44,305 nucleotides of DNA from Deltaproteobacteria bacterium (GTDB lineage: Bacteria; Desulfobacterota; DSM-4660; Desulfatiglandales; B25-G16). The translations under genes and the position numbers were made by a program. Below, one piece after another: positions 4,530-44,305 of the stretch. The notes under the pieces are model-generated. The model made no database searches. It was not told the DNA's origin and was given only the letters and a program-made list of their open reading frames with translations. Positions within the stretch are counted from its first letter, which is position 1; each line of letters starts with the position of its first letter. The stretch is from positions 1 through 44,305 of the forward strand of contig JAGYMO010000341.1 in the NCBI GenBank assembly GCA_018400255.1. Reading direction: 5' to 3'.

Positions 4530-5168
4530 ATGTTCAATGGAGTAAAAATAAACAAGCATAACCCTCTTTTATTGGCATCTTCCTCCCCAAGACGTAAATC
4601 AATACTCAGACAGATAGGTATTCCGTTTGTAGCAATGAAAAGTAGGTTCAAGGAGCCCATTTATGAAAATTTATCACCCGAGGAAGGAGCTTGTAAGGCG
4701 GCACTTAATAAGTCCAGGGCAGTGCATGAAATTAGAAAAAAGCAATGGGTACTTGGCGCAGACACCATAGTAGTGCTAAATAATGTAATATCCGGAAAGC
4801 CAAAAGATCCAGGGGACTGTCGTAATACACTTAACATGTTACAAGGAAAAGCCCACAATACAATAACTGGCTTTTGCATACTTGATTATAGGGGCGAGAT
4901 AGCACATTTAGAATCAGTTGTAACAAAAGTTAAAATCAAAAAATTAATGGGCGATGAAATAGAGAATTATATAAAAACAGGCGAACCGTTTGGCAAGGCT
5001 GGAAGCTATGCTATACAGGGCATTGGCTCCTTTATGATAGAATACATAAACGGTTCTTACACAAATGTTGTTGGCCTACCCGTCTTTGAAGTTATAAACG
5101 CCCTTGTTAAATGTAGGGCAATTGATGGCTTCCCCTTGATGGAAGATGAAATCAACTACTATCCCTAA
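4530..5168 (+). CDS. maf: Maf-family nucleoside triphosphate pyrophosphatase
   Basis: Contains 'LLLASSSPRRKSIL' and 'GKAGSYAIQG'. The last 5 codons plus stop lie inside repeat copy A. Confidence 0.88.
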   Translation: MFNGVKINKHNPLLLASSSPRRKSILRQIGIPFVAMKSRFKEPIYENLSPEEGACKAALNKSRAVHEIRKKQWVLGADTIVVLNNVISGKPKDPGDCRNTLNMLQGKAHNTITGFCILDYRGEIAHLESVVTKVKIKKLMGDEIENYIKTGEPFGKAGSYAIQGIGSFMIEYINGSYTNVVGLPVFEVINALVKCRAIDGFPLMEDEINYYP

Positions 5169-5385
5169 AAGGGGTAGCTTGAGGGTCAGAGGCACAAAGG
5201 CAGAAAGGCACAGACAGGCCTTTTCCGCTTTGCCCCTTTAGCTCTTAACCAGATAGAATTATTCAACTAAAGTCTTTGCATGTCGGAGCAAAGCGGAAAT
5301 CCCGATCACGGGGTCGAAGATTCCCGACGATACGTCGGGAGAAGGCGAGGGTTTCTCTCCCATTCCTCGAAGGAGACAATAAAAT
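5152..5385 (+). repeat. Dispersed GC-rich hairpin-rich repeat, family 1, copy A (~234 bp)
   Basis: Aligns by eye with 26735-27028. Shared blocks: 'tcaactactatccctaaaaggg', 'gtcagaggcaca', 'cagacaggcc', 'ttaaccagata.aattatt.aactaaa', 'gaaggcgagggg', 'caataa'. Contains several hairpins. Confidence 0.85.
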
Positions 5386-5445
5386 CCACGCTCATTGGCG
5401 CTTAATTATACCGCTTTAAATTTTAATTATAGTTGCAAATGCGAA

Positions 5446-6186
5446 TTATTTAGAATAGGACCTCTGCCTTACTATTTCAGAAAATATCACCCCTGAAGCT
5501 ACCGACACATTAAGTGAATCGATTTGCCCGAAGCCTGGTATGCTTACTATATGATCACATTTTTCTCTCACTATCCTGGCCAAGCCCTTTTCTTCATTTC
5601 CCATTACAAGAGCAACATCTCTTCTCCAGTCAAATTCATAAATACTTGTATTGCTCTCTCCTGAGGCCCCTATTATCCATACATTATTTTTTGCTAATTC
5701 ATCGATTGCCCTCGATAAATTTACTACCCTTGTTACCGGAAGGTGAGCTGAACCCCCAGCTGAAGTTTTATGAACAATATCATTAATACATGCGGACCTA
5801 TCTTTCGGTAATATAAGGCCTTGAACACCAAAAAATTCAGCCGTCCTAATCAGCGCCCCAAGATTACCCGTATCAGTAATATGATCAGCTACAAGAAGGA
5901 GGCCCTTCCCATCGCTTTCAATCGCAGTTGTAATCAATTCATCTAGATTAAAATATCTATAATTTTTTAACAAAGCCACTATGCCCTGATGAGATAAATT
6001 CGGCATTATGCTATCTATGTAAGCCTTATCCTTGAATTTAATGGGTACCCCTTTTTTCTCCGCCAAATCCAGTATCTCCTGAATACGGTGTATTTTCCTC
6101 TGTTCGGCGATCACAATCTCAATTATAGTATTGCCTTTTCTGAGGGTTTCTCTAACTGCATTTATACCTGATACAAAATAAGACAT
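5446..6186 (-). CDS. rlmB: TrmH/SpoU-family RNA 2'-O-methyltransferase (RlmB-like)
   Basis: 246 aa. SpoU motifs 'LVADHITDTGNLGALIRTAEFFG', 'LVMGNEEKGL', 'IPGFGQIDSLNVSVASGV'. Confidence 0.85.
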   Translation of the reverse strand: MSYFVSGINAVRETLRKGNTIIEIVIAEQRKIHRIQEILDLAEKKGVPIKFKDKAYIDSIMPNLSHQGIVALLKNYRYFNLDELITTAIESDGKGLLLVADHITDTGNLGALIRTAEFFGVQGLILPKDRSACINDIVHKTSAGGSAHLPVTRVVNLSRAIDELAKNNVWIIGASGESNTSIYEFDWRRDVALVMGNEEKGLARIVREKCDHIVSIPGFGQIDSLNVSVASGVIFSEIVRQRSYSK

Positions 6187-9190: not shown

Positions 9191-9246
9191 TCCCGACCGC
9201 AGAAAGCCACGGTTTTAACCGTGGATGAATGAGGCTGCGGTCGGGA
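9191..9246. repeat. Nested palindromic element, family 2, copy 1
   Basis: 12-bp outer stem tcccgaccgcag/ctgcggtcggga encloses a 7-bp inner hairpin ccacggt-ttta-accgtgg. The same sequence recurs at 44261-44305. Confidence 0.85.
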
Positions 9247-26569: not shown

Positions 26570-26734
26570 TGTTTCTCTTTTTAAAATCTAATTACAATAC
26601 ATATATTATATATCTTTGGCGTTTTCTTTGGTTAGAGATCGTATTTAAAAAAAAAGTTGACTATGAATAGAAAAATCATGGTAACAAAAAAGGGTACTAC
26701 ATTATTATATCTACCTAATTAAAAATATTACACG

Positions 26735-27028
26735 TCAACTACTATCCCTAAAAGGGATAGCTTGGGGGTCAGAGGCACAGAGGTACCGAGTTTTTGAGAC
26801 GCATTATTTCTTATTTGTGCCTGCCTGTACGATGCACCTGTCTGCGTGCTGACACGCACAGACAGGCGCAGACAGGCCTTTGCCACTTTGCCCCTTAACC
26901 AGATAAAATTATTAAACTAAACTCTTCGCGTGTCGAAGCGAAGCGGAGATCCCGCCTGCGGGGTAACGGATCCTCCTGAGCGGGGAAGGCGAGGGGTTTT
27001 TCCATTCCCCGAAGAAGGCAATAAGATT
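26735..27028 (+). repeat. Dispersed GC-rich hairpin-rich repeat, family 1, copy B (~294 bp, with a ~70-80 bp copy-specific insert)
   Basis: Same orientation and same ordered blocks as 5152-5385. The extra segment at about 26784-26856 overlaps a bulged 12-bp hairpin (26837-26866). Confidence 0.85.
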
Positions 27029-44260: not shown

Positions 44261-44305
44261 CCCCGACCGCAGAAAGCCACGGCTTTAGCCGTGGATGAAT
44301 GCGCC
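44261..44305. repeat. Nested palindromic element, family 2, copy 2 (truncated by the window end)
   Basis: The sequence 'cccgaccgcagaaagccacggctttagccgtggatgaatg' matches 9192-9231 except for a compensated pair in the inner stem. Confidence 0.8.

Follow-up and report, generated by a model that had tools for sequence, protein, structure and literature searches.

Two GC-rich, hairpin-dense segments in the 44,305-nt stretch of DNA analyzed here (hereafter, the window) belong to a large family of repeats that are very probably non-autonomous, PATE-like derivatives (102-435 bp when complete) of a compact IS200-group insertion sequence (IS) of the IS200/IS605 family. The evidence comprises the anatomy of the repeats, their target, the lack of terminal inverted repeats (TIRs) and target site duplications (TSDs), presence/absence polymorphism, tnpA-bearing elements in which both ends have homologs, and covariation in guides and hairpins. 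The window represents contig C341 of a 2.54-Mb MAG from an uncultivated, sulfate-reducer-like bacterium (G000; 393 contigs, 89.6% complete), whose closest named relatives are uncultured Desulfobacteraceae/Thermodesulfobacteriota MAGs.

Borders and anatomy of the two window copies

A sequence-only reading of the window had described positions 5152-5385 (copy A) and 26735-27028 (copy B) as co-oriented copies of one element, and pairwise alignment (A1) bore this out with 76% column identity and a 75-nt insert in copy B relative to copy A. The ranges identified the right segments but were a few bases too long, reaching into and past the target ATAA; refined borders, obtained from the whole-family alignment together with empty sites, are 5151-5378 for copy A (228 bp) and 26734-27020 for copy B (287 bp). 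The GC-rich islands and the hairpins CTATCCC-TAAAA-GGG(G/A)TAG and CCCG-N-CGGG pointed out in the same reading were both found in the sequence, and its degenerate tandem motifs are present as the arms of a long imperfect hairpin of 9-mers (GGCACA[AG]AG), the number of which differs among copies. It was also right that the element has no TIR, no TSD and no ORF; neither window copy contains an ORF of 80 aa or more, and the ORF at 4530-5168 reaches 17 nt into copy A. Single-strand folding compared to dinucleotide shuffles gave z = -4.2 for copy A and z = -3.8 for copy B.

In both copies, the transposon top strand is the minus strand of the window. Copy A (minus strand) was classified as a non-autonomous IS200-type element based on the family alignment, the flank logo and end homology to tnpA-bearing IS. 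Its right end (RE; 5151-5181, minus strand), delimited by alignment to IS right ends, contains a cleavage-site motif at 5151-5154 (plus-strand ATCA, i.e., TGAT; the family consensus is TGAC), the RE hairpin CTATCCC-TAAAA-GGGGTAG at 5159-5177 (minus strand) and a guide at 5178-5181 (plus-strand CTTG, i.e., CAAG). The cargo (5182-5272) comprises the long imperfect hairpin of GGCACA[AG]AG-type 9-mers (5182-5245) and an AT-rich linker (5246-5272). The left end (LE; 5273-5378, minus strand), delimited by alignment A4 to IS left ends, has hairpin arms at 5273-5279 and 5344-5351 that are split by a 64-nt insert of CCCG-N-CGGG units (5280-5343), followed by a guide at 5352-5355 (plus-strand TTTC, i.e., GAAA; consensus AAAA) and a terminal hairpin at 5356-5376, the element ending at 5378. 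The adjoining ATAA at 5379-5382 is the target remnant, which reads TTAT in transposon orientation and is located 5' of the LE cleavage site; the copy A target AA^ATAA is completed by AA at 5149-5150, as judged from the flank logo and empty sites.

Copy B (minus strand), which is not present at the orthologous site of the sister species G001, has its right end at 26734-26764 (minus strand), with GTCA (i.e., TGAC) at 26734-26737, the RE hairpin at 26742-26760 and a guide at 26761-26764 (plus-strand CTTG, i.e., CAAG). A palindromic module at 26817-26877 is found in copy B and not in copy A. The left end of copy B (26923-27020, minus strand) is degenerate, with LE arms at 26923-26929 and 26988-26996 separated by a 58-nt insert, a guide region at 26997-27000 and an eroded terminal hairpin; the target remnant ATAA follows at 27021-27024. 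As the LE hairpin loops are interrupted in both copies (inserts of 58-64 nt) and the terminus of copy B is eroded, copies A and B may be immobile fossils.

Size, distribution and composition of the family

The statement that the repeat is present twice holds for the window alone; a BLAST search of the genome found 56 family loci, all outside long ORFs and 26 of them at contig ends. Far from being limited to the two window copies, a case that the sequence-only reading had entertained, the family is large and polymorphic between relatives, with more than 30 matches in the same-genus sister species G001 and fewer in G003 and G004. Other genera of the taxonomic family carry mostly lone internal modules, and a related 5' end also occurs in G009 and G023. 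Exact-pattern scans with the element 5' end found nothing in genome contigs or metagenome contigs. The element 5' end weakly resembles a CRISPR repeat, and no CRISPR arrays were found in the genome.

All copies share one layout, starting with (G)TCAACTAC, a hairpin and GCTTGAGG and ending with GGCGAGGGTTTTTCTCCCATTCCCCGAAGGAGACA, and the middle of complete copies is a variable mosaic of hairpin modules. One such module, GCCTG(C/T)CTG..CGCAGACAGG (26817-26877 in copy B), stands alone in other genera (L033, L034, L036, L037, L039) and is therefore probably a nested small repeat, separate from the element. Some copies (G000 C392:2170-2330, C307, C359 and C189; G001 L177, L181 and L184) contain an internal module of approx. 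135 nt (CCCTGGCCCAGACCTGGCATTGCGACAAAC...GGGACGGGGAGGGCAGGC). In G002 and G003, the GCCTG(C/T)CTG..CGCAGACAGG module adjoins fragments resembling a four-helix-bundle (23S rRNA IVS-type) gene. That the conserved GGCACA[AG]AG-repeat hairpin, in which the core of the loop is conserved as well, serves as a functional payload and not as filler is conceivable but improbable.

Copies are often located exactly at gene ends because the target AAATAA contains TAA; for example, the empty form of the C392 site reads ..ttt aaa taa.., where the target includes the gene stop. Genome-wide, the upstream ORF runs 17-27 nt into the element at no fewer than six copies. In such cases, the original stop codon gives way to one from the element and the ORF becomes a few codons longer, as illustrated by the maf-like ORF (4530-5168, plus strand), the last five codons and TAA stop of which come from the copy A RE (5152-5168). 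The spacer downstream of maf is an insertion hot spot.

Both ends are shared with tnpA-bearing IS200-type elements

A metagenome scan with the element 3'-end (LE) motif yielded 50 loci. Eight of these 50 loci have an ORF of 145-149 aa after the LE motif, on the strand opposite to it, and an RE homolog beyond the ORF. The encoded protein shows the motifs ..SHTVYDIKYHIVWITKYRKP..KDHVHIFVSVPP..WARGYFVASSGNVTDE..KYIEQQ.. and scored 153-155 bits against the NCBIfam model transpos_IS200 (cut-off 55). The tnpA copies are intact at L211, L221, L231, L233, L240 and L249 and degenerate at L213 and L236. Full tnpA-bearing elements are 551-565 bp long, with 554-565 bp for those measured end to end (L221, L231, L240 and L249), and their layout in transposase orientation, with slashes at the element borders, is TTAT/TGTCTCCCTCGGGGAATGGGAGAAAAACCCTCGCCTTTAGGCGAAGACTTTAGTAGGCTTGCGGT-ATG..tnpA..TAG-..CCAAAG-CTACCGCC-TTCA-GGCGGTAG-TAGTTTAC/TT.

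When reverse-complemented, the window element matches the IS left end with its 3' end (alignment A4) and the IS right end with its 5' hairpin end (alignment A5). In copies whose LE hairpin is intact, the first 58 nt show few differences from the IS left end. In the IS copies, the LE and RE hairpins have a common apex, CGCC-TTYA-GGCG. The tnpA-bearing contigs belong to unrelated organisms. Of the identity proposed in the sequence-only reading, the repeat family with conserved hairpins is thus retained; in place of a structured ncRNA, a REP-like repeat or a protein-binding module, the evidence favors a PATE of the IS200 type.

Two other candidate origins were rejected. IS200-like tnpA copies at G001:C358:5149-5541 (L069) and G004:C143:2082-2465 (L070) have unrelated ends and an in-frame TGA; they represent another IS200 subgroup with the motif ..HTLWHCQYHIVWVPKYR.. 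An origin involving TnpB or omega-RNA was ruled out, as no TnpB domain was found in five genomes of the genus.

Insertion sites and mobility

Insertion sites of copy B and of the copies on C78, C320, C392 and C285 are empty in G001, with flanks that are 83-94% identical, and the copy A site is empty in G002 and G003 (spacers of 63-82 bp). A site on G000:C329 is itself empty and is occupied by a 197-bp copy in a 95%-identical metagenome strain (L216:4357-4553); L245 carries an almost identical 197-bp copy at a different locus. The near-identical 197-bp copies and the strain-level polymorphism establish recent mobility in the population. The copy A site in G001 (L054, G001:C248:5398-5752; orthologous to 5146-5461) holds a different insert of 355 bp that is rich in CACAGAT-type repeats, which resemble the cargo of elements with the same left end (L219, L250).

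Comparison of empty (..CAAATAAC..) and filled (..CAA[GTCAAC...GGAGACA]ATAAC..) sites does not require a duplication, and the A-counts at empty sites leave no room for one; the copy B junction, which may shift by 1 nt, was read pairwise, the multi-genome alignment being too gappy. The element termini, GTCAACTAC... and ...GAAGGAGACA, are not reverse complements of each other, and there is therefore no TIR. With dissimilar ends and empty sites without duplication, the earlier judgment that the repeat is not a classic TIR/TSD MITE was well founded.

A flank logo (40 left and 46 right flanks) shows AA before the element and ATAA after it, with no conservation further out. TTAT (plus-strand ATAA) was found in 39-42 of 46 flanks and at 66 of 77 LE junctions, and the tnpA-bearing copies have the same target, with flanks AA^ATAA. 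At least 31 of 40 flanks have TT on the 3' side of the insertion point, as compared to 11% of all TTAT in the genome. As a T at +1 is common to both junctions (LE and RE) and the target, the TT preference after the cut suggests a preference of the nuclease itself; it goes beyond what the 4-nt guide rule predicts.

Covariation of guides, cleavage sites and hairpins

The association between guides and cleavage sites was assessed with the IS608 pairing scheme of Barabas et al. 2008, in which position -1 reportedly pairs with G4, -2 with G3 (as A.A), -3 with G1 and -4 with G2. At the RE, the guide/cleavage-site pairs were CAAG/TGAC (n = 25 PATE ends), AAAG/TTAC (n = 4, on tnpA-bearing copies) and TAAC/TAAG (n = 1 IS copy); at the LE, the pair was AAAA/TTAT (n = 66). 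Every RE and LE combination satisfies the scheme, with compensatory changes between combinations at -3/G1 (G.C, T.A, A.T) and -1/G4 (C.G, G.C, T.A). Pairing of guide and cleavage site is a property of the IS200/IS605 family, where covariation between them is a sign of active elements (PMC10055086). The covariation observed here places the cuts at TTAT^T on the left side of the element and at TGAC^T on its right side.

The RE hairpin, i.e., the 5' hairpin of the window copies and the putative transposase-binding hairpin by homology, also covaries. In a set pre-filtered for at least 6 of 7 paired positions, its outer five pairs showed 14 double-change cells as compared to 3.8 ± 1.5 in shuffles (0 of 500). 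An unfiltered census found the RE inner stem to be CC/GG or GGC/GCC, each self-complementary, and the IS copies add GCC/GGC. Judged from these alignments, the compensatory variation in the RE hairpin is real.

The compensated stem that the sequence-only reading had singled out (5274-5279/5288-5293 in copy A vs. 26924-26929/26938-26943 in copy B) does differ in sequence as described but finds no support across the family. Among 47 copies, the pair in question was C-G in 33, C.A in 7, T.G in 3 and T-A in 1 (copy A only), where approx. 0.7 T-A would be expected by chance, and there was one double change as compared to 10 single changes. The pair CTTTGC/GCAAAG vs. CTTCGC/GCGAAG is thus no evidence for selection. 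This stem is located where extra hairpin units entered the LE hairpin loop.

Source of the transposase and alternative explanations

A tblastn search found no cognate tnpA in G000, and no tnpA with these ends was found in 34 species representatives of the taxonomic family, where the matches were distant paralogs with different ends, the best of them 48% identical. Since the MAG is 89.6% complete and breaks at repeats, the absence of tnpA carries little weight; given the recent mobility in the population, a transposase must be present now or have been present formerly, and incompleteness of the MAG is the simplest explanation for the missing gene.

The genome does contain two RAYT-like Y1 genes, at C22:1161-1973 (271+ aa) and C314:216-1346 (377 aa), the products of which match Pfam Y1_Tnp and Bac_DnaA_C and reach 67.8 bits against NCBIfam REP_Tyr_transpos, below the cut-off of 80. 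One could hypothesize that the elements are kept mobile without a canonical IS200 TnpA, through cross-mobilization by these RAYT-like Y1 proteins with their fused DnaA-C-like HTH; we consider this improbable, but if true, it would connect PATEs of IS200 origin to domesticated systems of the REP/RAYT type. A related alternative is that the repeats are REP/BIME-like mosaics which are serviced by the genome's own RAYT-like Y1 proteins (Y1_Tnp plus DnaA-C-like HTH) and not by a canonical IS200 TnpA. The presence of two such proteins in G000, the lack of a cognate tnpA in G000 and the family representatives, and the modular, mosaic nature of the elements, some modules of which occur alone in other genera, are consistent with this alternative. 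However, tnpA-bearing IS200-type elements have homologs of both element ends at their own termini, and the asymmetry of LE and RE and the TTAT target are typical of an IS and not of REPs. Moreover, ten Y1-type gene loci from the genus, of which eight are of the long RAYT-like type, have no element end in their flanks, and the number of Y1 genes does not follow the number of elements; G003 has about 20-22 Y1_Tnp matches, many of the long RAYT-like type, and few full elements, whereas G000 has two matches and 56 loci. Servicing of REP/BIME-like mosaics by RAYT-like proteins thus appears quite improbable as the origin of the family.

A second, REP-like repeat in the same genome, a 44-nt nested hairpin (GCGCATTCATCCACGGCTAAAGCCGTGGCTTTCTGCGGTCGGGG), occurs at 9191-9246 and 44262-44301 of the window and at C197:17192-17235 of G000. 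This hairpin has at least 15 near-identical copies in G001, and it could be the real partner of the RAYT-like genes.

A role as structured ncRNA genes or cis-elements, with hairpins kept for RNA function, would fit the hairpin density of the copies and the covariation of the RE hairpin. In addition, on the plus strand, the LE hairpin and the TTTTT after it look like an intrinsic terminator that includes G.U pairs, and the left end of Salmonella IS200 yields regulatory RNAs (PMC4513863). Against RNA function, Rfam gave 0 matches at gathering thresholds in the whole window, and matches on both copies at E ≥ 1 (E up to 10) were at chance level. The genome-wide census found no rule for element orientation relative to neighboring genes, the stem proposed by the sequence-only reading does not covary, and the 197-bp master copy (L216) has no promoter-like site, with the RE hairpin as the only feature flagged as terminator-like. 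Presence/absence polymorphism with exact borders likewise argues against it, and covariation between guide and cleavage site only makes sense for transposition. Overall, we regard RNA function as very unlikely to account for the family. Simple local duplication or a classic DDE-type MITE, to which the presence of just two co-oriented copies in the window might point, has next to no probability, as it is refuted by the census (56 loci genome-wide) and by junctions without TIR or target duplication.

Proposed mechanism

For the preferred reading as IS200-group derivatives, the mechanism outlined here is modeled on IS608; its chemistry, the trans action of TnpA and the place of the tnpA gene are inferred. 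In transposon orientation (window minus strand), the layout is TTAT/LE ... cargo hairpins ... RE/TT. The LE consists of the terminal hairpin, the guide AAAA and the hairpin CCCTCGCC-TTTA-GGCGAAGA, which resembles a bidirectional terminator, and the RE of the guide CAAG, the hairpin CTATCCC-TTTTA-GGGATAG and a linker/cleavage motif TAGTTGAC. A Y1 HUH transposase (TnpA), supplied in trans, would bind both subterminal hairpins on single-stranded DNA and would be directed to the cleavage sites by their base pairing with the 4-nt guide on the 5' side of each hairpin. The top strand would then leave as a circle, with the donor resealed scar-free, and the circle would be pasted 3' of TTAT, ideally at TTAT^TT, without target duplication.

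Implications

Recognition of the family explains approx. 56 intergenic GC-rich islands in the MAG, accounts for 26 of its 786 contig ends, explains several odd gene C-termini, including that of the maf-like gene, and calls for caution in annotating such islands as ncRNA. It also provides a naturally occurring series of covarying guides and cleavage sites at IS200/IS605 ends, in which three matching combinations are represented. The tnpA-only IS of approx. 555 bp and its abundant, recently mobile 197-bp derivative may offer a minimal substrate for single-strand transposition assays.

Metagenome contigs that are 92-97% identical to the MAG (L216, L224, L241, L245, L246, L252, L254 and L255) were found in the Ga0180432-Ga0180434 study series and a few other samples. 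Some metagenome contigs bridge gaps between MAG contigs across element copies; L246 joins C78 and C224, and L252 joins C218, C121 and C253.

Comparison with known systems

IS608 of Helicobacter pylori carries tnpB and targets TTAC. The family described here resembles IS608 in its subterminal hairpins, each with a 4-nt guide located 5' of it that pairs with the cleavage site. The IS608 left-end pair AAAG/TTAC is used by the IS copies here, but at the right end. Unlike IS608, the family targets TTAT, has a strong TT preference after the cut and places the RE cleavage motif 8 nt from the hairpin. Because the parent is tnpA-only (IS200 group), no omega-RNA or TnpB is involved.

REPs are palindromes of 20-40 nt that cluster around a single-copy RAYT gene. 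Small intergenic hairpin repeats, mosaic arrays and Y1 HUH proteins as movers are common to REP/BIME-RAYT systems and the present family, and RAYT-like genes are found in the genome; on the other hand, the family has a distinct LE and RE that match tnpA-bearing IS, and the element is absent from the flanks of the RAYT-like genes.

As in IS200 of Salmonella and other Enterobacteriaceae, the autonomous relatives carry a single Y1 tnpA, with a terminator-like left-end hairpin between an A-run and a T-run just upstream of it. IS200, at 707 bp, has been called the smallest fully autonomous IS known (PMC4513863); the autonomous relatives described here, at 551-565 bp, are approx. 150 bp shorter. Their end sequences have no relation to the ones found on the IS200-like copies of G001 and G004.

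The closest comparison is with palindrome-associated transposable elements (PATEs), which are defined within the IS200/IS605 family as derivatives that retain the ends only (PMC7290912, PMC10055086) and for which examples have been described in Haloquadratum walsbyi (PMC3119063), Halanaerobium (PMC7290912) and Geobacillus stearothermophilus (PMC10055086). The family differs from these in being a new sequence family, in uncultured Desulfobacteraceae-like bacteria, and in its unusually variable mosaic cargo, with 9-mer-repeat hairpins and nested palindromes, one set of which is located in the LE hairpin loop. It shares with PATEs the lack of an ORF, the retention of LE and RE hairpins, the lack of TIR and TSD, insertion 3' of a fixed tetranucleotide, the high copy number and presumed mobilization in trans by TnpA. 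Overall, the repeats represent a new sequence family of an already known kind, i.e., PATE-type derivatives of the IS200 group, and leave the known workings of these elements unchanged.
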